The notes under the pieces: model-generated
Seen by the model: the letters and a program-made list of their open reading frames with translations, nothing else
What the model was told of the DNA's origin: nothing
The model's database searches: none
Position numbers and translations under genes: made by a program
Shown here: positions 2,519 through 36,102 of the stretch, in pieces
Numbering within the stretch: the stretch's first letter is position 1
Layout: every line of letters begins with the position of its first letter
Source of the DNA: a virus
Taxonomy: Duplodnaviria; Heunggongvirae; Uroviricota; Caudoviricetes
Direction: 5' to 3' (one strand)
Length of the DNA: 56,022 bases
IMG/VR virus record: IMGVR_UViG_2534681672_000003
Coordinates: 1 to 56,022 of that record

Positions 2519-4914
2519 TTAATACTCTCCCCCATTTGCGCATCAGTTAATTCTTTATGCCAGAGACGAAGATTTCTCAAATGGCCGAATAGATGACGAG
2601 TTCCCGATGTGGCTTGACCTCCAATTCGAATAAAGGTCCGTGTTTTTACGCCCGTCCACTCCGTTTTCATAGTTTTAGTAGCCTCACCGTTAGAAACTAC
2701 TCGTTTAGTACCATCAGAATAAATATTAAAACCACCAATGAATTTTCGAACATCAGTTCGACCAGCAAACACACTAGAAACGTAAGTACTTGTCGACGCT
2801 TTATAAGTTTGTATATAAAGCTGACCGTAACATTTCTCAGTTGTGTTAAAAGCGTATGTAATTGACTCAATAGGTGGCACACCAGAAAAATCAAAAATAC
2901 GCGGTGCTACATTAGGAGGAATATCGCCCCAATTTCTATTGACCTCGACAAGACACGTAAGCGGTCTATTATAGATATTATTTTCAGTTGGGATCGTCAC
3001 CATATCACTGGAGCGGGTTGCGGGTGCAGTTGTCGTAATAACAAAAGATGAAGCACATCCGCCGTTTTCAAATTGTGGTGTTGCAAGGTAAATATAATCT
3101 CCCGCTTCAGTTATACCACCTTTTTTCGGCGCATACTGAATCATTGCGCCAATTAAGGCTTCACCTTCAACAGCTTCTATAGTTGCCTCATAGAAAATCC
3201 ACCCTGTAACCGGATCTTTAGTTGCAGTAGCTGCTATTCTATTGGCTGCTCCGCCAGTTTTTTCTATTATCAGAGTTCCGAAAGTTAAATAAGCATCTCC
3301 TAAAAATGTATAAACCGACCCATCGTATTTTTCAAAACGCAAACGACAACGAAGACCATCAGGAGCTTTAACCCTGCATGAAACAGTGCAATACTTATTA
3401 TCGCCACTAACATCAATCCCCCGGGATGCACTGCATGTATGCAGACTAAGTGCAGATGATTGTCCTGTCATATTATCTTTTGTTCGCATTTTGGCATATG
3501 AAAAACCAAATTCATCAACACCATTATTAGTTTTATCGATATTGCTGGTACTCGTCCATTCAGCGGGAGTATTGGATTTAACAAAATAGTTAGTGCGCTG
3601 TCCTTCAATCAATAAACCTTCTTTTTCAAATCGTGGCTCATCAATTTTAGCAACACTAAATACGCCTGATTTATTGATATATGTGGCAGTTGATGCGCGT
3701 TTAAACTTAACAACCTTGTCGCCAGGCATCGTTATTTCATCATCACCAATAACAATTTTTTTATATGACGGCGAAAAGCCCGTAATCATATCCAGTGAAT
3801 CGTTAAACGGTATCCACACATCAGGCAGTGGCTGTAAGACATATTTATACGGCTCTGCTGCCTGACTTGCATACTCTCTGGCTGCGTCTTCACTTGCTTT
3901 AGCTGCTGTCTGGCTTGCTGCCGATGCTTTCGCCGAGTTCGCCGCTGCAGTCTCGCTTGTCTTTGCATTGGTTTCACTGGTTTTTGCCGCTTTTTGACTG
4001 TTGGCTGATGCAGTGGCAGAAGCAGCCGCCGCGCTTGCAGAACCAGCTGCCGCGCTCTCGCTTTGGGCTGCTGCAACCTGGCTGTTTTTCGCCGCAGTTT
4101 CGCTGGCTTTGGCATTCGTTTCGCTGGTCTTCGCTGCCGTCTGGCTGGACTTTGCGTTAGTTTCACTCGTCTTCGCAGCTTTCTGGCTGTTAGCCGCAGC
4201 AGTTGCTGATCCAGCTGCTGAAGTCGCAGAACCGGCTGCCGCGCTCTCGCTTTGGGCTGCTGCAACCTGGCTGTTTTTTGCCGCAGTTTCACTGGCTTTG
4301 GCATTCGTTTCGCTGGTTTTCGCTGCCGTCTGGCTGGACTTTGCGTTGGTTTCGCTCGTCTTTGCGGCTGTCTCGCTATTTTTCGCGTTGGTTTCTGATT
4401 TTTTGGCTGCTGTCGCGGAGTTTGCCGATGCAGTCTTTGAGGTCGCTGCCGCCTGTGCACTATTAGCTGCATTCGTTTCTGAGGTTTTCGCCGCGTTCTT
4501 TGATGATGCCGCTGCAGTTTCGGATTTCTTTGCCGCCGCTGCGCTCTGAGAGGCGGCTTCGGCGTTGCGTGCCACTTCTTCCACCATTGCCTCAAAACGA
4601 CGCAATGCCTCCGGCATGACATCATCTTCCGTCATGGCACCGAGAAAATCATTCAGCGTACCTGGTCTGGAGCCTTCATAGACGGTAATGGTCCCGGCAT
4701 GTGAAGGCGGAAAACCTTCAACCAGCAGGGTGACGCTGTACTGGCCATACTCAACATCCATGCTGTAACGTCCGGCTTCATCCGGATTTTCAGAAGCCAC
4801 CGTGTTCACCAGTACCGTGGTGCTGTTACGCTTTGCCTTCAGTTGAATAGTGCAGTTCTGTATTGGTTTTCCCGCACCATCTTTCAGCACACCTGAGATT
4901 TTTACTGCTGCCAT
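2515..4914 (-). CDS. stf: side tail fibre protein (lambda Stf-like N-terminus, divergent C-terminus)
   Basis: The N-terminus MAAVKISGVLKDGAGKPIQNCTIQLKAKRNSTTV... is collinear with lambda Stf. The ATG at 4914 follows a GGAG ribosome-binding site. The middle of the protein is an Ala/Ser/Thr/Lys-rich repeat. Confidence 0.85.
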   Translation of the reverse strand: MAAVKISGVLKDGAGKPIQNCTIQLKAKRNSTTVLVNTVASENPDEAGRYSMDVEYGQYSVTLLVEGFPPSHAGTITVYEGSRPGTLNDFLGAMTEDDVMPEALRRFEAMVEEVARNAEAASQSAAAAKKSETAAASSKNAAKTSETNAANSAQAAATSKTASANSATAAKKSETNAKNSETAAKTSETNAKSSQTAAKTSETNAKASETAAKNSQVAAAQSESAAAGSATSAAGSATAAANSQKAAKTSETNAKSSQTAAKTSETNAKASETAAKNSQVAAAQSESAAAGSASAAAASATASANSQKAAKTSETNAKTSETAAANSAKASAASQTAAKASEDAAREYASQAAEPYKYVLQPLPDVWIPFNDSLDMITGFSPSYKKIVIGDDEITMPGDKVVKFKRASTATYINKSGVFSVAKIDEPRFEKEGLLIEGQRTNYFVKSNTPAEWTSTSNIDKTNNGVDEFGFSYAKMRTKDNMTGQSSALSLHTCSASRGIDVSGDNKYCTVSCRVKAPDGLRCRLRFEKYDGSVYTFLGDAYLTFGTLIIEKTGGAANRIAATATKDPVTGWIFYEATIEAVEGEALIGAMIQYAPKKGGITEAGDYIYLATPQFENGGCASSFVITTTAPATRSSDMVTIPTENNIYNRPLTCLVEVNRNWGDIPPNVAPRIFDFSGVPPIESITYAFNTTEKCYGQLYIQTYKASTSTYVSSVFAGRTDVRKFIGGFNIYSDGTKRVVSNGEATKTMKTEWTGVKTRTFIRIGGQATSGTRHLFGHLRNLRLWHKELTDAQMGESIK
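3998..4370. repeat. about two tandem copies of a 189-bp (63-codon) unit inside stf
   Basis: GCAGAACC(A/G)GCTGCCGCGCTCTCGCTTTGGGCTGCTGCAACCTGG recurs at 4037 and 4226. The protein segment AAKTSETNAKSSQTAAKTSETNAKASETAAKNSQVAAAQSESAAAGSA is repeated. Confidence 0.8.
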
Positions 4915-9101: not shown

Positions 9102-9743
9102 TCAGCGACCAATCACCACAACCTGACCACCATCACCTTCATCTGCTGTGCTGATCTCCTGAGATACCACACGTGATCCCACGCGCATTTCACCGTACAG
9201 AACGGGCAGAACATTGCCCTGGGCAACCATATTATCCAGTGAAGAAAAATAGGTGTTCTGTTTGCCGTTATCCGTTGTCTGTGTGCGGGGGGTTTTGGGT
9301 TTAGGGGCCAGCATCTGTGCAACACCGCCAAGCGTCATACTGGCACCGAGAGAAAACAGCAGATTACTCGCCATAATTCCTACCCCCGGCATCCATATAG
9401 CAACCGCCATAACAGCCGCCCCCAGCACAGCCTGAAACACACCGCCACTTTTGGCTCCTGCCAGACGCGGCACGATATGGATCACAGCACCATTTGCCAG
9501 CGGTTCATTAAGACGGGCTGATAATTCCGTTTCACCTGTATCACGCCCGGCAATCCGTACCTGATACCAGCCGTCGCTCAGTTTCTGACGAAACGCCGGG
9601 AGCTGTGTGGCCAGCGCCCGGATGGCTTCAGCCCCCGTTTTCACACGAAGGTCGATGCGGCGACCAAATCGTTGTAAATCCCCGTAAAGGCAGATGCGCG
9701 CCATGCCCGGTGACGCCAGAGGGAGTGTGTGCGTCGCTGCCAT
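9102..9743 (-). CDS. I: tail assembly protein I
   Basis: MAATHTLPLASPGMARICLYGDLQRFGRRIDLRV... matches lambda gpI. The central hydrophobic part diverges. Confidence 0.9.
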   Translation of the reverse strand: MAATHTLPLASPGMARICLYGDLQRFGRRIDLRVKTGAEAIRALATQLPAFRQKLSDGWYQVRIAGRDTGETELSARLNEPLANGAVIHIVPRLAGAKSGGVFQAVLGAAVMAVAIWMPGVGIMASNLLFSLGASMTLGGVAQMLAPKPKTPRTQTTDNGKQNTYFSSLDNMVAQGNVLPVLYGEMRVGSRVVSQEISTADEGDGGQVVVIGR

Positions 9744-10384
9744 TTGTCGGTATACCTCTCTCGTTTGCTCAGTTGTTCAGGAATATGGTGCAGCAGCTCG
9801 CCATCACCACAGTAAATGGCGGCATGATTCGGCACCGATGAACCAAAACAGCACAGCAGCACATCGCCCGGTTGTGCTGATGACAACGGCACCTGATACA
9901 GCCCTGTGGCCTCCAGATTATCCAGATAGAGATTCTGACCGTGACGCCACCAGTCATCCTCGCGATGAAAATCCGGCATCTCAATCCCCGCCAGATGATA
10001 AGCATCCCGGAACAGCGTGTAACAGTCCGTCACCCCGTGCTCAAAGCGCCGCCCGGTGAGATGCGGCACACAGCGGAACTTATGAATCGCCCCCCGGCAG
10101 ACCAGCAACCACGGCAAATCACTCTGCACCTGCAGCCGCCGGTCAGCCTCACTCAGCCAGGGCAGACCACCGGGGTGGCTGTGGACCAGCGCCACAATCT
10201 CACCCTGCATTTCTGCCTGCAGCCAGTCCTCCGGAGCCATCCGGAAATAATCCTCCGGCTCACCGGAGATATTCACGCAGGGGAAATATCTTTCCCCCTC
10301 CGGCGTGCTTACCACGAAGCCGCACGACTCCGCTGGCGCACATCGCCGGGCGTGCGCCAGAATCGCTGATTCTGTCTCTGTCAT
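9641..10384 (-). CDS. K: tail tip assembly protein K (NlpC/P60 + MPN-like)
   Basis: The start was moved to MTETESAILAHARRCAPAESCGFVV, as in lambda gpK. The ORF-track N-terminal extension overlaps L. Confidence 0.9.
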   Translation of the reverse strand: MTETESAILAHARRCAPAESCGFVVSTPEGERYFPCVNISGEPEDYFRMAPEDWLQAEMQGEIVALVHSHPGGLPWLSEADRRLQVQSDLPWLLVCRGAIHKFRCVPHLTGRRFEHGVTDCYTLFRDAYHLAGIEMPDFHREDDWWRHGQNLYLDNLEATGLYQVPLSSAQPGDVLLCCFGSSVPNHAAIYCGDGELLHHIPEQLSKRERYTDKWQRRTHSLWRHRAWRASAFTGIYNDLVAASTFV

Positions 10385-10388
10385 GGGA

Positions 10389-11087
10389 TTACTGCGAAAG
10401 TTTGTTAATGGAAAGGAAGCCGCCAAAGTTGCCGACGTTATTGCGGAACTTACAACCGCTCAGGCATTTGCTGCATTTATCCTTCGTGATATCGGACGTT
10501 GGCTGGTCATATTCATCCGCGACCGCCGGACCGTGATAACCGCACTCATCGCCGCGATAGGTCCAGGTGCAGGTGTTGGCCAGCATGATACGTCCTGGAA
10601 AAACAGCGCCGTCCGTTTCCGTCGGCGTGGACAGTACAAAAGAGGCACTCACCGCGCTCAGTTCGCTGCACTGCTCAATACGCCAGCGGCTGATCACCTC
10701 CTGCTCCGGATCGGCGTCTCTGTTTCCGTTGACGAAGTTCACCGCATCCAGAAAACGGGCATAAACCTTACGCCTGACCACCGTTCCGCCGACCAGACTC
10801 TGCAGATCTTCCGCCATCCCGGTGACCATGCCATACAGGTTAGAAAGCGTCAGCGTGGGGCGCGTACTGGTGCCTTTGCCATTCAGTTCGAAACCACTCC
10901 CCTGAATGGGATACGCCTGATACTGTCGCCCCTGCCAGGTGACCGGCTCACCTTTTTCGTTCTGCTCATTACAGAAAAAATAACGTTCTCCACCAACCTC
11001 TGTCAGATCGATTTCCCAGAGCACCACGCTGGCAGACTGCTCCGCACGGGTGCATTCATTCAGTGTTTCCTGTCGGATATCCTGCAT
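10389..11087 (-). CDS. L: tail tip protein L
   Basis: 232-aa ORF, MQDIRQETLNECTRAEQSASVVLWEIDL..., matching lambda gpL. Confidence 0.92.
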   Translation of the reverse strand: MQDIRQETLNECTRAEQSASVVLWEIDLTEVGGERYFFCNEQNEKGEPVTWQGRQYQAYPIQGSGFELNGKGTSTRPTLTLSNLYGMVTGMAEDLQSLVGGTVVRRKVYARFLDAVNFVNGNRDADPEQEVISRWRIEQCSELSAVSASFVLSTPTETDGAVFPGRIMLANTCTWTYRGDECGYHGPAVADEYDQPTSDITKDKCSKCLSGCKFRNNVGNFGGFLSINKLSQ

Positions 11088-17352: not shown

Positions 17353-18143
17353 TTACGCCAGTTGTACGGACACGAACTCATCAGGGTCAGCCAGCAGCAT
17401 CAGCGGTGCTGACTGAATCATGGTGAACTCACGCGCCGGATCGCCGGTGGTCACCCAGTTTTTCGGGTAGCGGGCAGAGGCGTTAATGCCTTCGCGCTGT
17501 GCGTCCGCATCCTGAATGCAGCCATAGGTGCGCAGACCGCGTGCCTGAGTGTTCCCCAGCACCATCGTGTTGTCCGGCAGGAAGTTCTTTTTGACGCCGT
17601 TTTCCACGTACTGTCCGGAATACACGACGATGGCCACATCGCCATACATTCCCTTATAGGACACCGCTTTGCCCAGGTCTTTTACCGCTGTCTCCAGCTC
17701 GGAATGAGAGCCGCGACGGGTATCCAGCTTCTCCCTGACGGCTTTGAAAGAACGGAACAGCGCCCAGCCTTTCGGATCAAACACGATGATATTCACCACA
17801 CCGCTGGCGTTCAGCGCGTAGGCTTCGATATCGTCTGTCGGGTCATACGTGGACTTGTCACGCTTGCTCCACTCCGTGCCGCCGGACTGCGTGATGTTAT
17901 TCGCCTCACTGCGGCCCATATCCACCTCAACCGGATCGAAGGCTTCACCGGTCATGGTGTATTTGCCCTTAAGCACGGCAGAAACTGCCTGCATCTCTTC
18001 GACCTGAGCAATGGCCAGCTCTTCGTCACGCATGTTCTGCATGATGATGCGACGGCGGCGGTAAGTCGGGTCCGCCAGATTCTGCGGATCTTCATCCGGC
18101 AGGCGACGCAGGGTCATCTGCGGATTCACCTCATGCTTCGGCT
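17353..18143 (-). pseudogene. E: major capsid protein E, 3' part (codons ~79-341), separated from its 5' part by the insertion
   Basis: The minus strand reads (K)PKHEVNPQMTLRRLPDEDPQNLADP...EFVSVQLA, collinear with the lambda gpE C-terminus. No start codon or ribosome-binding site is left at the break. Confidence 0.95.
18134..18143. repeat. left copy of the 10-bp direct repeat (att core) TGCTTCGGCT
   Basis: Identical to 29567-29576. It lies exactly where E homology stops. Confidence 0.9.
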
Positions 18144-18277: not shown

Positions 18278-19183
18278 ATGCGCTCACCCAACAGAATGCA
18301 TGAACGCTCAACATTTTATAAGTATATGTCGTTGAATACCGCGAAGATTGTTCTTGATTCATGCAGCCTTAGATGGAGTTCTCCGGTCCTATTTAATGAC
18401 CCTTTTGATGTTCCAAGAGAAGTTATGCCTGGTATTAACGAAATTAATATTGGCAAAGCTTTAGCCCGCAAGTTAATAGCGGAGTTGATTACCCCCAGAG
18501 AAGACATACAAAATTTAAACCCTAGAATTAGAACAATGCTAAGTGATTTCCAAAAGTCATTTCCTTTAGGCATACCCGCAGGATTAATTGAAAGATTTCA
18601 AGAAATGGTAAACATTCCACCAGTTGGGATTGGCGCTCCTGCGGCAATACAAGAAATGAAAGATGTCTGGCGAGGAATGCTTAATAACAGAAGGATTTTG
18701 TGTTTATCTGAGAGCCCTATAATCACTCCTATGTGGAATCACTATGCCGATAAATATAAAGGTATAGTTATCGAATTTGATTGTGTAGACTTTCTGGATA
18801 GCGCTTGGTTAATAGCCAAACCTATGAAATACACAGATGAAATGCCTCTAACTCACACTGCTGAAGGGATGGCCGAGTTGCTTTTCATGCCAGACAATAA
18901 GTCAATTGAATATATCAATAATGAGATAATATTCATAAAAACAGAAGAATGGGCATATGAAAGAGAGTGGAGAATTTCAACCTACGCTAGGCCAAATAGC
19001 ACTGGTCAATATAGCGACTTAAAATTTCACCCTTTTGAGTTAAAATCTGTAATACTTGGTCCTCTTTTTGATGCCAGCGAGTTCGATGAAGTCGCATCAC
19101 TAGTTAAGATGTATCCAAGAGCGAAATTATTTAAAAGTTCATTTGGGAACGACAGAAAAATATCCATAGTACCACTACCTTAA
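18278..19183 (+). CDS. cargo protein with a DUF2971-like N-terminal signature
   Basis: 301-aa ORF with a ribosome-binding site AAGAGG. FYKYMSLNTAKIVLDSCSLRWSSPVLFNDPFD resembles the DUF2971 family signature, by recall. The gene is AT-rich, opposes the core genes, and has its own terminator. Confidence 0.55.
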   Translation: MRSPNRMHERSTFYKYMSLNTAKIVLDSCSLRWSSPVLFNDPFDVPREVMPGINEINIGKALARKLIAELITPREDIQNLNPRIRTMLSDFQKSFPLGIPAGLIERFQEMVNIPPVGIGAPAAIQEMKDVWRGMLNNRRILCLSESPIITPMWNHYADKYKGIVIEFDCVDFLDSAWLIAKPMKYTDEMPLTHTAEGMAELLFMPDNKSIEYINNEIIFIKTEEWAYEREWRISTYARPNSTGQYSDLKFHPFELKSVILGPLFDASEFDEVASLVKMYPRAKLFKSSFGNDRKISIVPLP

Positions 19184-19289: not shown

Positions 19290-19841
19290 TTAACTTCGCT
19301 GATTATCCTTGATATACCTTTCAGCCATATCTGGAATGTTATCTGAGATCTGGTAAGCTCGAATAAATGCTTTACTGACCTCCATCTTAATGAAGTCCTG
19401 ATACCGTTTTCCCATGCCAGGAAACTGTCGACAGATCGCAAGTGGAAGACTATCAATGATTGCTCCAACTTCCCCAGTTAATTTCGACAAGGCATAAGTC
19501 GCAAATGCAGTGTCAATTACCTCACCTGTTTCGCTGGCATTCTTCAGTTCCTGTGCGTCGGCCTGCGCACGCGTAAGTCGATGGCGTTCATACTCAATAG
19601 TCCCTGGCAGGAGATCTGCCTCGCTGGCCTGCCGCAGTTCTTCAACCTCCCGGCGCAGCTTTTCGTTCTCAATTTCAGCATCCCTTTCGGCATACCATTT
19701 TATGACGGCGGCAGAGTCATAAAGCACCTCATTACCCTTGCCACCGCCTCGCAGAACGGGCATTCCCTGCTCCTGCTAGTTCTGAATGGTACGGATACTC
19801 GCACCGAAAATGTCAGCCAGCTGCTTTTTGTTGGCTTCCAT
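19290..19841 (-). pseudogene. Nu1-like small terminase gene with an in-frame TAG at codon 22
   Basis: MEANKKQLADIFGASIRTIQN*QEQGMPVLRGGGKGNEVLYDS... The first ~100 codons are almost identical to the resident Nu1, and the C-terminal ~80 codons are divergent. The ORF track picks up only from M27 (19763). Confidence 0.8.
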
Positions 19842-20085
19842 TGTTCATTCCACGGACAAAACCAGAGAAAGGAAACGACAGAGGCCAAAAAGCCTGTTTT
19901 TAGCACCTGTCGTTTCCTTTCTTTTTAGGGGGTGTTTTTAATAAAAACATTAAGTTACGGCGAAGAAGAACGGAAACGCCTTAAACAGGAAAATTTTCAC
20001 AAATAGCGAAAAACTGCGCGCCTGACGCCCCGTAGCCTGTCAGATCGCCGGAAAGGACCCGCCAGCCAGAGCGGGCCCTAATTTC
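19842..20085 (-). other. satellite cos region (cosB-cosN-cosQ-like); predicted cosN 12-mer at 20019-20030
   Basis: Collinear, without indels, with the resident cos at 35829-36048. The 12-mer CGCCTGACGCCC replaces AGGTCGCCGCCC. Confidence 0.75.
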
Positions 20086-20086
20086 A

Positions 20087-20470
20087 TCAACCAATCAGCT
20101 TATAGCGACCATCCCGTGCATTGCGGCGTACACGCTCAATCTTGAGGCATAGCGCCGCATCTGGCTTTTTTGGGACAGGTACGCGGCAATATTCAGAAGC
20201 GCGAGGAATATTATTTATCCAGTCGATCACTTCACTTAAATACCAGGCCTTACGCCCTTCCGTAACCTGCACACGCTCCGGGAACTCTCCACTAGCCTCA
20301 AGGTTTAGCAGTGTACGACGACTCAGGGTTGTAATTTCCATCACCTGATTCATATCAACAAGGCGCTCGCTTAAACACATTTTGTCAGCGATAGCTTTTA
20401 ATTCCTCTACAGCTGGATTCGGGTACATCATTTCGGCAATTGGCTTAAGGTCATTGTAATCATTCTGCAT
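20087..20470 (-). CDS. AlpA/MerR-superfamily HTH protein with N- and C-terminal extensions
   Basis: 127-aa ORF. The core MEITTLSRRTLLNLEASGEFPERVQVTEGRKAWYLSEVIDWI fits the AlpA-family pattern. A GGGGGA ribosome-binding site is present, and the gene is tightly coupled behind the D-like gene. Confidence 0.6.
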   Translation of the reverse strand: MQNDYNDLKPIAEMMYPNPAVEELKAIADKMCLSERLVDMNQVMEITTLSRRTLLNLEASGEFPERVQVTEGRKAWYLSEVIDWINNIPRASEYCRVPVPKKPDAALCLKIERVRRNARDGRYKLIG

Positions 20471-20481
20471 TGTATCCCCCT

Positions 20482-20823
20482 TTACACACGAGCCAGCGGC
20501 TGAACAGAAATACCTGAGCCAACAAACGCTGCAACCTTTACTGACAGTTCTTTAACAGACTCAGGCCAGTTCAGAGCATCAACATTTAAGACACCTGTCT
20601 TATAGACCTGAGCCTGTGTTTTTTTCGCGGTGTCGATTTGTACAGCGGAAACATAAACCGCTTTACCTACGCTCGAACCATCCCATACCACCAGTGCACC
20701 TGTTGCATCTTCCTGCATCAGTGGCGTAAATGCAGGAATTACCCCTTTATTAGCTGAAAATATCCCCAGCGTAGTCACCAGTGCTTCAGTGCCAGCCATG
20801 AGTTCAGTGTAATGAGTAGCCAT
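20482..20823 (-). CDS. head decoration protein, lambda gpD-like
   Basis: 113-aa ORF. It aligns by eye with gpD at TPLM..LV.WDG..., YK.G..., WPE... and AF.G..IS. Confidence 0.65.
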   Translation of the reverse strand: MATHYTELMAGTEALVTTLGIFSANKGVIPAFTPLMQEDATGALVVWDGSSVGKAVYVSAVQIDTAKKTQAQVYKTGVLNVDALNWPESVKELSVKVAAFVGSGISVQPLARV

Positions 20824-20832
20824 TGCTCCCCC

Positions 20833-21873
20833 TTAGCCAATGCGAACGGTAACAAAACGATTGATGCGGGCCGGTATTGGCTGTGGTGCTGAATGTGTCT
20901 GCACATATTCAATAGCCGGATCACCAGGCACAATATAGTTTTTCGGTGCAAGTTCGGCTTTAGTCAGCCCCATTCGGATTAGCTCCGGATCCTGAATACC
21001 GCCATAGGCGACAATCCCCTGAAGAGCCGTATTGCCAAGCACCATCAAATCAGGATCAAGGAAATGTTTTTCTGTTCCGTCCTCGTCGGTATAACGCCCG
21101 CTGTAAACAACAATCGCAACATCGCCCATATACCCTTTAAAACTCACCGAATCACCAAGGTCTTTAAGGGCCGTTTCCAGTTCGGAATTAGAACCACGAC
21201 GGGTATCCAAAGCCTCTTTTATCGCTCTGAATGAACGGTATTTCTTCCATACATTACCACCCATAATGATGATATTAGTGACGCCCTCACTAAATTCTGC
21301 GTAGCTCTCAATATCATCATTTGGATCAAAAGTTTCTTTATCCTTACCTGACCACTCAGTACCGCCAGACTGAGTGATGATATTTTGTGGTTTTATATTC
21401 CAGTCCAGCTCATAACGTTCAATACCATCGCCCTCAATGATATTTTTCCCCGTTGTGATAGCCTGAACAGCAAGCCATTCAATACGTGCACGAATAGCTT
21501 TAGCCTGATTTACAATCGCCTGTTTAACTTTAATATTACGCGCCCCAAAAGCATTGTATTGCTCAGGTGACACACCAGCAGGGCGCACAGCTAACTTATT
21601 TGGATCAATGCTGCTTTTCGGCTTCATATAACCTGGACGAATTGTTTTTGATTCGTATCCCTCATCTCGTGAAACTTTACTGCCCACCATAGGAGAGCAA
21701 AACGCCGCGATCGGGATATTTGGATCGTCGATCGTATCAAGAATAATGTCTCTCGATTCAAACATTACCGAGCGAGTGAAAAACAAACTGGTAAACAACG
21801 CATTTAATTTTTTTTGTACATCTACAGCATTAACCACCTGTACAAGCTGAGTAGGCGAATATAAATCAACCAT
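20833..21873 (-). CDS. major capsid protein, lambda gpE-like (satellite-encoded)
   Basis: 346 aa from MVDLYSPTQLVQVV. Conserved blocks are QSGGTEWS..DK.T.DP.DDIE.YA and LDTRRGSNSELETA.KDLG..VS.KG..GDVAIVVYSG. AAGAGG lies upstream of the ATG at 21873. Confidence 0.85.
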   Translation of the reverse strand: MVDLYSPTQLVQVVNAVDVQKKLNALFTSLFFTRSVMFESRDIILDTIDDPNIPIAAFCSPMVGSKVSRDEGYESKTIRPGYMKPKSSIDPNKLAVRPAGVSPEQYNAFGARNIKVKQAIVNQAKAIRARIEWLAVQAITTGKNIIEGDGIERYELDWNIKPQNIITQSGGTEWSGKDKETFDPNDDIESYAEFSEGVTNIIIMGGNVWKKYRSFRAIKEALDTRRGSNSELETALKDLGDSVSFKGYMGDVAIVVYSGRYTDEDGTEKHFLDPDLMVLGNTALQGIVAYGGIQDPELIRMGLTKAELAPKNYIVPGDPAIEYVQTHSAPQPIPARINRFVTVRIG

Positions 21874-22069
21874 ACGCATCCTCTTTGCATTCATTAAAAA
21901 TAATTGTGGATATATGCTATCACCGATATTTGTCATGCGAACACATGCAACCGAGTGCAATGTTGTATAAAGTTTTGGGGTGACAACTTCAGTGCGGACA
22001 ATTAGTGTTAATATCTTCACTCCCTTTGGTCGGGATTTATGTAGCATGCAGGAAAATTTATTTTTTCCG

Positions 22070-22790
22070 GCCTTTTTGTGCACAGAAAACCCCCAGCTAG
22101 GCTGGGGGTTCCGGAAAGCTTTCAGCTTTGAGCCAGTTATTAAAACCCCTTTTGATTTGTTAAAACACTTTGCGGTCTGGCAACTGCAAGTGTCAAACAA
22201 GAAATCAAAAGGGGGTCCCAATGGGGAACGAAAAGAGCTTAGCGCACACCCGATGGAACTGTAAATATCACATAGTTTTTGCGCCAAAATACCGAAGACA
22301 GGTGTTCTACAGAGAGAAGCGTAGAGCAATAGGCAGTATTTTGAGAAAGCTGTGTGAGTGGAAAAGCGTACGGATTCTGGAAGCTGAATGCTGTGCAGAT
22401 CATATCCATATGCTTGTGGAGATCCCGCCCAAAATGAGCGTATCCGGGTTTATGGGATATCTGAAAGGGAAAAGCAGTCTGATGCTTTACGAGCAGTTTG
22501 GTGATTTGAAATTCAAATACAGGAACAGGGAGTTCTGGTGCAGAGGGTACTACGTCGATACAGTGGGTAAGAACACGGCGAAGATACAGGATTACATAAA
22601 GCACCAGCTTGAAGAGGATAAAATGGGAGAGCAGTTATCGATTCCCTATCCGGGCAGCCCGTTTACGGGCCGTAAGTAACGAAGTTGGATGCAAATGTCA
22701 GATCGTGTGCGCCTGTTAGGGCGCGGCTGGTAAGAGAGCCTTATAGGCGCATTTGAAAAACCTCCGGCTATGCCGGAGGATATTTATTTT
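22070..22790 (+). mobile_element. IS200 (IS200/IS605 family) copy; ends approximate
   Basis: tnpA is flanked by the characteristic hairpins CCCCCAGCTAGGCTGGGGG (left) and CCTCCGGCTATGCCGGAGG (right). The size is about 0.7 kb. Confidence 0.7.
22221..22679 (+). CDS. tnpA: IS200 Y1 (HuH) transposase TnpA
   Basis: MGNEKSLAHTRWNCKYHIVFAPKYRRQVFY...HIHMLVEIPPKMSVSGFMGYLKGKSS... is the typical 152-aa IS200 TnpA. Confidence 0.92.
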   Translation: MGNEKSLAHTRWNCKYHIVFAPKYRRQVFYREKRRAIGSILRKLCEWKSVRILEAECCADHIHMLVEIPPKMSVSGFMGYLKGKSSLMLYEQFGDLKFKYRNREFWCRGYYVDTVGKNTAKIQDYIKHQLEEDKMGEQLSIPYPGSPFTGRK

Positions 22791-28167: not shown

Positions 28168-29403
28168 TTAACCAGCCTTTTGTTTGAGGATTATCACTTT
28201 TGAATCAGCACCTGCGATGCTATTGAGATATGTAGTCCAGAGTTCCAGAGCATCCAGTTTTTTAGCCATAAACTTACTCCGGTTGTAAACACCTGCCACG
28301 CCAGGTAGCGCATGGCCTAACAGTTGTTCTACTACATAAAATTCAACACCGAGATCACTTAGATGAGTAGATAGCGTTCTTCTAAGGTCGTGTAGTGACC
28401 ATTGTTTTTCATGGCCCAAACGTTTACCGATTTTCCCCCCAATCTTGCTTACGCTTTCTCTAATTCGCAGACTTCCCAGCACATAACCAGTATGTTTTGT
28501 CTCTTCGTGAACATCCGTTACCCACTGTCGTAGAATTTCAGGTACTGGTCTGACGATTTCAACACCAGTTTTTGAGTGATCTTTTGGTACCGTCCAAACC
28601 CAACTTTCGAGATCCCATTCGCTCCATTCAGATAATCGGGCTTCACTCATTCGACATCCAAATACTGTACAAAGCACAAACATTTTTCGCGTGTATTCAG
28701 ACATTAGTTTTAAATCAGGCTCGACAAAAATTGCCTTCCAGAGCTGGCCCAGTTCGGCTTCATCCAGAACCCGATCCCGCTTACCTGCAATCTGCCCCAC
28801 ATCACTCATGCGCAAATCCTTTAAAGCATCACATGTCGCGTACTGGCGTACCCGACAAAAACGAAGAGCTAATTTAGTGTCAGAAAAAACATACGCCGCC
28901 ATAACTGGTGCATTACGTTTAATTCGGTCAAAACAGTCCAGCCATTCATATAGGTGAGTGTCATTTACAGGCAAATGACCGATATAGGGAAAGATATGCT
29001 TTCGAAATCTGCCAAGCGTTACAGCATGAGTTTTACGACGCACCTTACAGTAATTTTCATACCAGTAATTTAGTGCATCCTCCACTGTGACCGGCTTTAA
29101 GCGTTCTTCAGCCTGAATCTTAATCTGGATACGCGGATCACGTTTGTCAGCCAACCAACCACGGCACTCGTCGCGCTTTTCCCTTGCCTGTTTGAGTGAC
29201 ATATCAGGATATTTACCCAACGTTAGCCAGACCGGAGCAGCCCGGCCACCTGCTAACCTGTAGAAGAAAACAAAGCTCACAGCCCCCTTGGTACTCACAC
29301 GAATAGAAAGCCCCTTTCCATCAGCAATGGTGATCTGCTTTTCTCTGGGTTTCCCCAGATATCCTTTAAGCGCTTTGTCGCTCAGTTTGTTCTCGCCAGC
29401 CAT
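28168..29403 (-). CDS. int: tyrosine integrase, P4-type (DUF4102 arm-binding N-terminus)
   Basis: Start at MAGENKLSDKALKGYLGK. The N-terminus has GKGLSIRVSTKGAVSFVFFYRL, and the catalytic region has HDLRRT...LGHALPGVAGVYNR. The gene abuts the right att copy. Confidence 0.9.
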   Translation of the reverse strand: MAGENKLSDKALKGYLGKPREKQITIADGKGLSIRVSTKGAVSFVFFYRLAGGRAAPVWLTLGKYPDMSLKQAREKRDECRGWLADKRDPRIQIKIQAEERLKPVTVEDALNYWYENYCKVRRKTHAVTLGRFRKHIFPYIGHLPVNDTHLYEWLDCFDRIKRNAPVMAAYVFSDTKLALRFCRVRQYATCDALKDLRMSDVGQIAGKRDRVLDEAELGQLWKAIFVEPDLKLMSEYTRKMFVLCTVFGCRMSEARLSEWSEWDLESWVWTVPKDHSKTGVEIVRPVPEILRQWVTDVHEETKHTGYVLGSLRIRESVSKIGGKIGKRLGHEKQWSLHDLRRTLSTHLSDLGVEFYVVEQLLGHALPGVAGVYNRSKFMAKKLDALELWTTYLNSIAGADSKVIILKQKAG

Positions 29404-29566: not shown

Positions 29567-29576
29567 TGCTTCGGCT
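29567..29576. repeat. right copy of the 10-bp direct repeat (att core) TGCTTCGGCT
   Basis: Identical to 18134-18143. E homology resumes here. Confidence 0.9.
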
Positions 29577-29811
29577 TGACATATCCCGGCGTAAATTCAG
29601 AGGTGGAGCCGCCACGGGAACGGATAACCTCACCGGAAACAATCGGCGAAACGTACAGCGCCATGTTTACAAGTCCCGGAATTTGTGAGAGATAGACTTT
29701 CTCCGTAGTGAAGGGATAGCTCTCACGGAAAAAGAGACGCAGAAACAGCGGATCAAACTTAAATTTCTGCTCATTTGCCGCCAGCAGCTGGGCGGTTGTG
29801 TACATCGACAT
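29567..29811 (-). pseudogene. E: major capsid protein E, 5' part (codons 1-82)
   Basis: MSMYTTAQLLAANEQKFKFDPLFLRLFFRESYPF...EFTPGYVKPKH matches the lambda gpE N-terminus. The frame then runs into satellite DNA (LAWLSEAFV*). Confidence 0.95.
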
Positions 29812-29866: not shown

Positions 29867-30199
29867 TTAAACGATGCTGATTGCCGTTCCGGCAAACGCG
29901 GTCCGTTTTTTCGTCTCGTCGCTGGCAGCCTCCGGCCAGAGCACATCCTCATAACGGAACGTGCCGGACTTGTAGAACGTCAGTGTGGTGCTGGTCTGGT
30001 CAGCAGCAACCGCCAGAATGCCAACGGCAGCACCGTCGGTGGTGCCATCCCAAGCAACCAGCTTACGGGTGGAGGTGTCCAGCATCAGCGGGGTCATTGC
30101 AGGCGCTTTCGCACTCAATCCGCCGGGCGCGGTTGCGGTATGAGCCGGGTCACTGTTGCCCAGCGGCTGGTAATGGGTAAAGGTTTCTTTGCTCGTCAT
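29867..30199 (-). CDS. D: head decoration protein D
   Basis: [41 protein letters not shown]... matches lambda gpD (110 aa). Confidence 0.93.
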
Positions 30200-30208
30200 A
30201 AACATCCC

Positions 30209-30863: not shown

Positions 30864-31009
30864 TTGCCATCCACCTTATGGCTGCCGCTGTAAATCAGCG
30901 TGATTTCCACGCCCTGTTTCTCCAGCGCAGCACCGTTTGCCATCCACCTTATGGCTGCCGCTGTAAATCAGCGTGATTTCCACGCCCTGTTTCTCCAGCG
31001 CAGCACCGT
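30864..31009. repeat. perfect tandem duplication, 2 x 73 bp, inside gene C
   Basis: TTGCCATCCACCTTATGGCTGCCGCTGTAAATCAGCGTGATTTCCACGCCCTGTTTCTCCAGCGCAGCACCGT occurs at 30864-30936 and again at 30937-31009. Confidence 0.95.
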
Positions 31010-35308: not shown

Positions 35309-35828
35309 TCAGCAACCCCGGTATCAGTTCATCCAGCGCGGCTGCTTTGTTCATGGCTTTGATGATATCCCGTTTCAGGAAATCAACATGTCGGTTTTCC
35401 AGTTCCGGAAAACGCCGCTGCACCGACAGGGGGATCCCGTCGAGAATACTGGCAATTTCACCTGCGATCCGCGACAACACGAAAGTACAGAATGCGGTTT
35501 CCACCACTTCAGCGGAGTCTCTGGCATTCTTCAGTTCCTGTGCGTCGGCCTGCGCACGCGTAAGTCGATGGCGTTCGTACTCAATAGTCCCTGGCTGGAG
35601 ATCTGCCTCGCTGGACTGCCGCAGTTCTTCAACCTCCCGGCGCAGCTTTTCGTTCTCAATTTCAGCATCCCTTTCGGCATACCATTTTATAACGGCGGCA
35701 GAGTCATAAAGCACCTCATTACCCTTGCCACCGCCTCGCAGAACGGGCATTCCCTGTTCCTGCCAGTTCTGAATGGTACGGATACTCGCACCGAAAATGT
35801 CAGCCAGCTGCTTTTTGTTGACTTCCAT
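35283..35828 (-). CDS. Nu1: terminase small subunit Nu1
   Basis: 181-aa ORF, MEVNKKQLADIFGASIRTIQNWQEQGMPVLRGGGKGNEVLYDS... Confidence 0.95.
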
Positions 35829-36060
35829 TGTTCATTCCACGGCCAAAAACAGAGAAAGGAAACGACAAAGGCCCAAAAGTTCGTTTTCAGCACCTGTCGT
35901 TTCCTTTCTTTTCAGGGGGTATTTTAAATAAAAACATTAAGTTACGACGAAGAAGAACGGAAACGCCTTAAACCGGAAAATTTTCATAAATAGCGAAAAC
36001 CCGCGAGGTCGCCGCCCCGTAACCTGTCGGATCGCCGGAAAGGACCCGTTGGCCGTTCTG
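35829..36060 (-). other. cos: resident cos site (cosB, cosN, cosQ); cosN 12-mer at 36006-36017
   Basis: The minus strand reads ...CGACAGGTTACG GGGCGGCGACCT CGCGGGTTTTCGCTATTTATGAAAATTTTCCGG..., which is the lambda cohesive-end sequence. Confidence 0.9.
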
Positions 36061-36102
36061 GTCTACTTCGTAATGGGATTTAATAGCTGAACGACAAAAG
36101 TC

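Follow-up and report, generated by a model that had tools for sequence, protein, structure and literature searches.

The E'-D' gene pair and the satellite that carries it

The DNA analysed in this study, the 56,022-nucleotide virus record IMGVR_UViG_2534681672_000003 (the whole of which is called the window), is a lambda-like prophage, here read along the minus strand, and its capsid gene E is split by a satellite insert of 11,433 bp with a G+C content below that of the flanking head and tail genes. Two neighbouring minus-strand open reading frames (ORFs) of this insert are the subject of the present work. These are satE (20833-21873), coding for E', a satellite-type major capsid protein of 346 aa with the HK97/lambda-gpE fold, and satD (20482-20823), coding for D', a satellite-type head decoration (cement) protein of 113 aa with the gpD/SHP fold. 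We observed that the two ORFs are the late-zone capsid and decoration genes of a helper-embedded phage-inducible chromosomal island (HE-PICI) of the published 11capE family. Both are full-length and intact in the window copy, and they stand in the order E' then D', as opposed to D then E in the helper prophage. A first-pass annotation of the same DNA, made from the letters alone, had given exact coordinates for the pair and had already pointed out the reversed order.

The identity of E' was supported by several lines of evidence. The protein begins with MVDLYSPTQL, a GAGGA ribosome-binding site precedes the ATG, and the same ORF is annotated by RefSeq in the near-identical strain SCU-102. A 498-aa ORF opening with TTG (20833-22329) was considered as an N-terminal extension of satE and rejected, because the homologues begin at the annotated methionine and the relatives have upstream stops. 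Phage_cap_E (PF03864), a profile from Pfam, matched E' over positions 4-327 of 329 (9.5e-42), and BLASTP against the restored helper E gave 42% identity from end to end (E=2e-85); the collinearity with gpE that had been read from the letters was thus borne out, together with the two conserved blocks quoted for it. A sequence search of the PDB returned 3BQW (9.4e-122) and lambda gpE (1.6e-77), and the AlphaFold2 (AF2) model, with a predicted local distance difference test score (pLDDT) of 65 and a predicted template modelling score (pTM) of 0.71, superposed on 3BQW and lambda gpE with template modelling (TM) scores of 0.87 and 0.83, respectively. Since 3BQW, a crystal structure that entered the PDB in 2008, is 97% identical to a PICI-encoded E', the HK97 fold of a satellite-type member has in fact been solved for years.

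For D', the Pfam profile HDPD (PF02924) matched at 4.5e-15, the identity to helper D was 38%, and the PDB sequence search found SHP of phage 21 (1TD0, 4.7e-16). Its AF2 model (pLDDT 85) gave TM scores of 0.81/0.88 to SHP and 0.76/0.89 to gpD (1C5E). The motifs from which this ORF had been called gpD-like (TPLM, WDG, YK.G, WPE and AF.G..IS) are all present. Structure prediction had been proposed as a check on both proteins, and the AF2 models gave gpE and gpD folds for them.

With reference to the insertion site, a 10-bp att core, AGCCGAAGCA, was found on the minus strand at both junctions, namely at 18134-18143 on the side of the E C-terminus and at 29567-29576 on the side of the E N-terminus, where it adjoins the integrase. 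The minus-strand fragments of helper gene E occupy 29567-29811 (N-terminal) and 17353-18129 (C-terminal); the first 82 codons stop at about 29567, the remaining 259 restart at about 18143, and joining the flanks at the att core restores an intact E of 341 aa. The proposal that the satellite sits in helper gene E is therefore sound. The attL/attR identity block lies in the PGYVKPKH codons of E and brings no replacement sequence for the target gene; the integration point is codon ~80 of the lambda-type E (site E:Phage_cap_E:80). A TAG stop stands ahead of the C-terminal fragment and therefore no fusion protein is made. Helper gene D (29867-30205, minus strand) lies upstream of the split gene.

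Along the minus strand, the element begins with a tyrosine integrase (28168-29403, minus strand; Pfam Arm-DNA-bind_3 and Phage_integrase), followed by AlpA, two plus-strand ORFs, an Icd-like protein and a 74-aa protein. Next come a DUF4222 protein, a D5-type primase, an 81-aa protein, a single-stranded DNA-binding protein (SSB) and the insertion sequence IS200C on the plus strand, and then E', D', a second AlpA-like gene, cos, a Nu1-like gene and a plus-strand DUF2971 gene. The key satellite genes and the helper late genes all run on the minus strand. The element thus lies in a prophage late gene, co-oriented with it, and the tyrosine integrase at its end is of the HE-PICI clade, with AlpA coming next. 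It also shows the features of Gram-negative PICIs, being of the ~10-15 kb class, with int, alpA, primase/replication genes and cos, and lacking lysis and tail genes. Out of the set that marks capsid-forming PICIs (cf-PICIs), which consists of portal, protease, scaffold, large terminase subunit (TerL), small terminase subunit (TerS) and connector, only the Nu1-like gene was detected. Profile searches and the SCU-102 annotation revealed no portal, protease/scaffold, TerL, tail or lysis genes in the 11,433 bp, so the portal, protease/scaffold and TerL must come from the helper, as had been proposed, and so must the tails. The accompanying statement that the satellite has no other head genes stood as far as these genes are concerned and fell short with respect to packaging: a lambda-type cos and a Nu1-like small-terminase gene are present, which means that one packaging gene is carried.

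Elements of this kind are already known. The type HE-PICI, Eco567.11capE of Escherichia coli NRG857c, was described by Tommasini, Mageeney and Williams (bioRxiv 2022; NAR Genom Bioinform 2023; PMC10111431) as an 11-kb satellite that disrupts a lambda-like capsid gene E, carries its own capsid gene and has a 10-bp att identity block, within a prophage integrated at icd. Only for NRG857c have experiments shown that, on induction, the satellite leaves the composite as this replicates (PMC10111431). The window element resembles it in the gene E site, the 10-bp block, the gene order from int to the second alpA and the nesting in a lambda-like prophage, and the products are nearly the same (integrase 99.5%, AlpA 100%, primase 99.8%, E' 99.4% and D' 99.1% identical). 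The two differ at the 3' end, where the window has cos, nu1' and the DUF2971 gene and NRG857c has a 64-aa ORF followed by HEPN and DUF262 genes; an IS200C insertion and a nu1' nonsense codon are further peculiarities of the window copy. As the element, its insertion in gene E and its capsid and decoration genes all stand in the literature and in RefSeq, the finding itself is not new. What this study adds is the satellite-only clade, the purifying selection and the site-independent context of the E'-D' pair.

Descent, selection and distribution of the pair

The homologues of E' fall into two groups, one of 346-352 aa proteins sharing 52-99% identity with it and, after a gap, the phage E proteins (341-344 aa) at 44% or less. 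Among 50,697 phage records the best match was lambda E (42.6%), and none reached 60%. In a neighbour-joining tree, 26 of the 27 satellite-type proteins formed one clade, which was split at the midpoint root from the 61 phage-type E proteins, and the identity to helper E stayed constant at 41-45% whatever the divergence of E' inside its own clade. At the nucleotide level, the longest exact match between satE and helper E of the window is 13 nt, and third codon positions show an identity of only 0.2-0.55, the conserved amino-acid blocks included. The possibility that these blocks came from the helper by gene conversion or a recent capture was rejected on account of this 13-nt match and of synonymous sites that are saturated even there. 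The ratio of nonsynonymous to synonymous divergence (dN/dS) lay in the range 0.02-0.08 in E' and 0.06-0.13 in D', dS being saturated; judged from these ratios, the pair is under strong purifying selection. The comparisons identify E'-D' as a satellite-specific, anciently diverged lineage, and no recent copy of the helper genes. The cos region and the 5' part of nu1' share 93% nucleotide identity with the helper, as against the diverged E', indicating two modules with different histories.

The divergence is unevenly spread. In E' it is concentrated in residues 1-160, covering the N-arm, the E-loop and the spine helix, while the A-domain blocks of residues 160-260 are common to E' and phage E. 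In lambda, the gpE E-loop and the adjacent N-arm combine with the N-terminus of gpD into a sheet of four strands (PMC5701804). The D' clade has signatures of its own, an N-terminal motif PYxELxAGTE and a C-terminal SVQPL tail, and its N-terminal segment is conserved across satellites, unlike that of gpD. This pattern of divergence in the two proteins is consistent with a co-evolving cognate pair, without proving it.

The contexts of the pair were also compared. A scan of species-representative genomes gave 4 loci, and contexts were therefore drawn from contigs encoding homologues. The pair was found in E. coli PICIs adjoining phoQ, in PICIs at fis in Serratia and Lelliottia, within a portal gene in Edwardsiella, in a helper that has D and E of its own undamaged, and within gene E in Cedecea and Kosakonia. 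At all the satellite sites examined the order is E' then D', whereas phage contexts always show D then E. The presence of the same pair in satellites outside gene E argues against a recent capture from the helper, and also against a primary role as a spare for a broken E. Both ORFs are found intact in eight or more enterobacterial genera and, within E. coli, in hundreds of complete genomes; of 5,426 such E. coli genomes, 395 have the allele type of the window and 598 the type represented by c1499 of the PICI EcCICFT073.

Some of these relatives carry additional genes around the pair. In the PICI at fis of Lelliottia sp. SL45 (L014), a gene for an S49 peptidase of 447 aa (9409-10752) lies directly 3' of E'-D', and a Phage_HCP gene is found near alpA, so that some satellites of this kind carry at least three head genes. 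In the other PICI subclade, a conserved ORF of 68-75 aa overlaps the start of E' (L002, 7795-8001; L007, 7789-8001; L014, 7774-8001). It has no Pfam match on record and is absent from the subclade of the window element.

A hybrid capsid gene was also noticed on a metagenome scaffold of 4,432 bp (ENA ERZ28600228, positions 2801-3829). Nucleotides 1 to ~652 of this gene are of the helper E type, and from 653 to the end it is 100% identical to satE of the window; portal, S49 and D genes lie upstream, and satD and the second alpA downstream. The switch between the two types lies within their longest common stretch, the 13-nt TGGATACCCGTCG. The gene probably arose by recombination at microhomology, although it comes from a single scaffold and misassembly is possible, and it hints that the helper and satellite capsid proteins are structurally interchangeable.

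Comparison with known systems places the pair more precisely. The genes c1499 and c1500 of EcCICFT073 were reported as capsid and decoration homologues in a Gram-negative PICI (Fillol-Salom et al., ISME J 2018; PMC6092414). They belong to the same clade and stand in the same order, followed by a Nu1-like gene; among the relatives of this type examined here (L002-L004), E' is 97% identical to 3BQW. The EcCICFT073 type differs from the window in being chromosomal and not helper-embedded, in its E' (~55-56% identical) and D' (~54%), in having an AAA_25 replication module in place of the D5-type primase, and in the small ORF overlapping the E' start. Lambda gpE and gpD and phage 21 SHP share the folds and are collinear with E' and D' at 42% (E) and 31-40% (D) identity; their gene order is reversed, and the E'-D' genes of the window differ from these phage counterparts in standing alone, without portal, protease or scaffold genes. 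Ccm of SaPIbov5 is likewise a satellite-encoded homologue of the helper's major capsid protein. It is 23% identical to that protein, is needed for small capsids (PMC6893505) and has no partner decoration gene, while no size change was seen for the E. coli PICI pair in the EcCICFT073 data (PMC6092414). A review by Dokland (2019) repeats the comparison with Ccm and the negative size result (PMC6893505). The cf-PICIs also supply their own capsid protein, but they encode a full head and packaging set, compared with only E', D' and a Nu1-like gene in the window element, and their capsid protein 9gyi is a far more distant HK97-fold relative of E' (7% identity). In a literature search for later functional work on PICI capsid and decoration genes, nothing was found beyond the 2018, 2019 and 2023 papers.

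Upstream element, packaging genes and lesions of the window copy

A conserved non-coding element was identified upstream of satE on the minus strand (21900-21971). It consists of three TTGCAY repeats in 10-bp phase (21936-21960) followed by GTGATAGCAT, the repeats and this sequence lying 60-100 nt before the E' start. It is unique within the window by pattern search and is kept in five other genera, namely Kluyvera, Superficieibacter, Kosakonia, Cedecea and Serratia (L005, L009-L012). A promoter scan of the coding strand upstream of satE returned no sigma-70 consensus. This suggests that the element is a candidate activator-dependent promoter or activator binding site. Directly 3' of D' lies the second AlpA-like helix-turn-helix gene (20087-20470, minus strand; Pfam Phage_AlpA 7.6e-09, phrog_2790 1.1e-49), and the triplet of E', D' and this gene is kept in the subclade of the window (L005, L006, L009-L012).

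The satellite cos region, with cosN and a cosB-like part, occupies 19842-20045 on the minus strand, with flanks ~93% identical to the helper cos. Its cosN lies at ~20016-20027; the helper cos lies at ~36000, the helper cos-nu1 region being aligned over 35690-36080. The 12-nt cohesive end is GGGCGTCAGGCG in the satellite and GGGCGGCGACCT in the lambda-type helper, with differences at 6 positions, so the satellite and helper ends would not anneal together. The adjacent gene nu1' (19290-19841, minus strand), a Nu1-like small-terminase or Rpp-like gene, matched Pfam Phage_Nu1 at 1.3e-63 over profile positions 27-162. Over the first ~100 residues it hardly differs from lambda Nu1, and it diverges in the C-terminal third. 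In the window it carries a nonsense codon, W22 TGG>TAG (19776-19778), within the winged-helix DNA-binding domain, where the helper codon is TGG; a restart ORF from Met26 (19290-19763) would encode 157 aa. Strain 09A19CPO009 (L016) has an intact gene of 183 aa, and in SCU-102 the gene is annotated as a pseudogene.

Two further lesions were detected. IS200C (22078-22786, plus strand; tnpA 22170-22679; Rfam STnc490 22088-22211) is inserted between ssb and the upstream region of satE, immediately 3' of the ssb stop and in hairpin-forming sequence, and leaves the element upstream of E' intact. It is present in the window copy and in SCU-102, and absent from the otherwise 99%-identical elements of 09A19CPO009 and NRG857c. 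Helper gene C, coding for the S49 protease/scaffold, contains an exact 73-bp tandem duplication (30864-31009) that shifts the frame and leaves pieces of 279 aa and 244 aa, as against an intact 439 aa in the near-identical SCU-102; either a genuine inactivating mutation or an error of assembly could account for this.

An Rfam scan of the whole window recovered only the IS200 STnc490 RNA, and neither a C4 nor an isrK immunity RNA was detected at the gathering threshold. At the 3' end of the satellite, the DUF2971 cargo gene (18278-19183, plus strand) matches the candidate anti-phage defence family PDC-S31 (PADLOC, 2.5e-32). With HEPN and DUF262 genes at the same position in NRG857c, this end looks like a variable slot for cargo or defence genes.

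A possible role of the pair in head assembly

On balance, we lean towards the reading in which E' and D' build, or contribute to, lambda-sized T=7 heads together with helper parts, and in which these heads are filled by four-unit concatemers. On helper induction, the pair would be expressed from its own upstream element, by read-through from the helper late genes, or by both. E', by itself or together with helper gpE, would then assemble T=7 shells of lambda size, using the helper portal, the C/Nu3 protease-scaffold and GroEL/ES. D' would serve as the cognate cement for E', the gpD-binding regions of gpE (N-arm and E-loop) being those most diverged in E', and the helper terminase would load the E' heads with concatemers, the cuts being made at the cos of the satellite. 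At 11,433 bp each, four units amount to 45.7 kb, or 94% of lambda's genome length (42.9 kb if the IS is left out), and the first-pass suggestion of four tandem copies in a T=7 head is the one that accords with published data. The length of the element as such was discarded as a guide to the T number, as almost any length of 7.6-17 kb fits some integer multiple in the lambda packaging window. The pair would thus be the satellite's own conditional supply of shells and no device for size redirection, and it would matter, for example, while the helper E is still split or where the helper capsid genes are defective or limiting. The S49 protease gene following D' in the Lelliottia PICI is consistent with such a shell-building role.

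Several points weigh against this reading. Deletion of c1499 or c1500 in EcCICFT073 left both the transfer by the resident helper and the interference with lambda unchanged, and c1499 could be replaced by a cat marker (PMC6092414), so that the pair is dispensable under the conditions tested, which is a main weakness of every functional reading. Virions from the NRG857c composite were not detectable (PMC10111431), and the IS200C insertion, the nu1' stop and the helper C duplication leave it possible that the window composite is inactive. Phage E proteins, too, usually differ most from one another in the N-arm and E-loop, and this pattern is no proof by itself of a cognate pairing of E' with D'. 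Moreover, E' would have to be able to work with the Nu3/C scaffold and portal of the helper.

The alternatives differ in what the pair would be for. According to Tommasini et al. (PMC10111431), E' could be a spare part that supplies capsid protein while the helper E is split, with heads made before or without excision, and the first-pass annotation had likewise offered a replacement for the broken E. No site is used by HE-PICIs more often than gene E, with 201 of 491 elements (PMC10111431), capsid genes are the commonest late gene among Gram-negative PICIs, and late transcripts of the co-oriented helper operon would run into E'-D'. This proposal is nevertheless weakened, and we regard it as unlikely, considering that the same module is kept in PICIs adjoining phoQ, at fis and in the portal gene with the helper E intact, that D' is always co-carried though D is never disrupted, and that E' is anciently diverged from helper E and no copy of it. 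Excision, too, restores E precisely, reaching 42-98% by 2-3 h (PMC10111431), and an unexcised composite of ~61 kb exceeds the lambda head. The other possibility raised at first pass, that E', alone or with D', steers assembly, as Ccm does, to small capsids able to take one or two genomes of the satellite, has precedents in SaPIbov5 Ccm, a capsid homologue that causes small capsids, and in PmCI172, which encodes a capsid homologue and makes small capsids; E' is also most diverged in the regions of inter-capsomer contact. The sizing behind this idea was correct on recalculation, one unit filling ~84% of the estimated T=3 capacity of 13.6 kb, and two IS-free units (21.4 kb) roughly equal a scaled T=4 capacity of 21 kb. 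Redirection of size is, however, unsupported and appears quite improbable to us, for the DNA packaged with lambda and EcCICFT073 was all phage-sized (PMC6092414; PMC6893505), and deletion of c1499 or c1500 altered neither the transfer nor the interference (PMC6092414). The satellite, in addition, has no scaffold gene. Lambda terminase cuts efficiently only at ~75-105% head filling, and no tailed phage with an isometric T=3 capsid is known to us, both of which count against small heads.

Two further explanations assign the pair either a harmful function or none. Given that PICIs interfere with their helpers, E' and D' might be poison subunits that co-assemble with helper gpE and lower the helper yield; the conserved A-domain blocks could permit mixed capsomers, and the natural hybrid gene of helper E and satE on one metagenome scaffold points the same way. 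Yet lambda was still interfered with after either deletion (PMC6092414), Rpp accounts for the interference (PMC6739421), and poison subunits would also damage the satellite's own particles, which makes this a very improbable explanation. That the pair is a functionless remnant of an earlier capture of helper late genes would agree with the lack of phenotype of the EcCICFT073 deletions and with the dynamic late zones of these elements. Such a remnant is scarcely credible in view of the low dN/dS values (0.02-0.13) at saturated synonymous sites, the intact ORFs in so many E. coli genomes and other genera, and the conservation of the gene order and of the upstream element.

Returning to the reading in which the pair supplies shells, a stronger form of it may be proposed tentatively, as one we would not yet count on. 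These PICIs may be 'semi-capsid-forming', with the E'-D' pair forming the actual particle shell and the helper lending the portal, scaffold and protease. If this is true, they would occupy an intermediate position, with satellites that take over complete heads on one side and cf-PICIs, which take tails alone, on the other, and the pair would matter mainly with helpers of which the capsid gene is split, defective or limiting. Since the E'-D' pair showed no phenotype in the one system tested, the reason for its retention in E. coli genomes by the hundred, and in satellites of eight or more genera of enterobacteria, is a real question, already recognised in the field. The existence of an old satellite lineage sharpens this question, and offers the idea that the pair may supply shells when the capsid gene of the helper is unavailable or defective.

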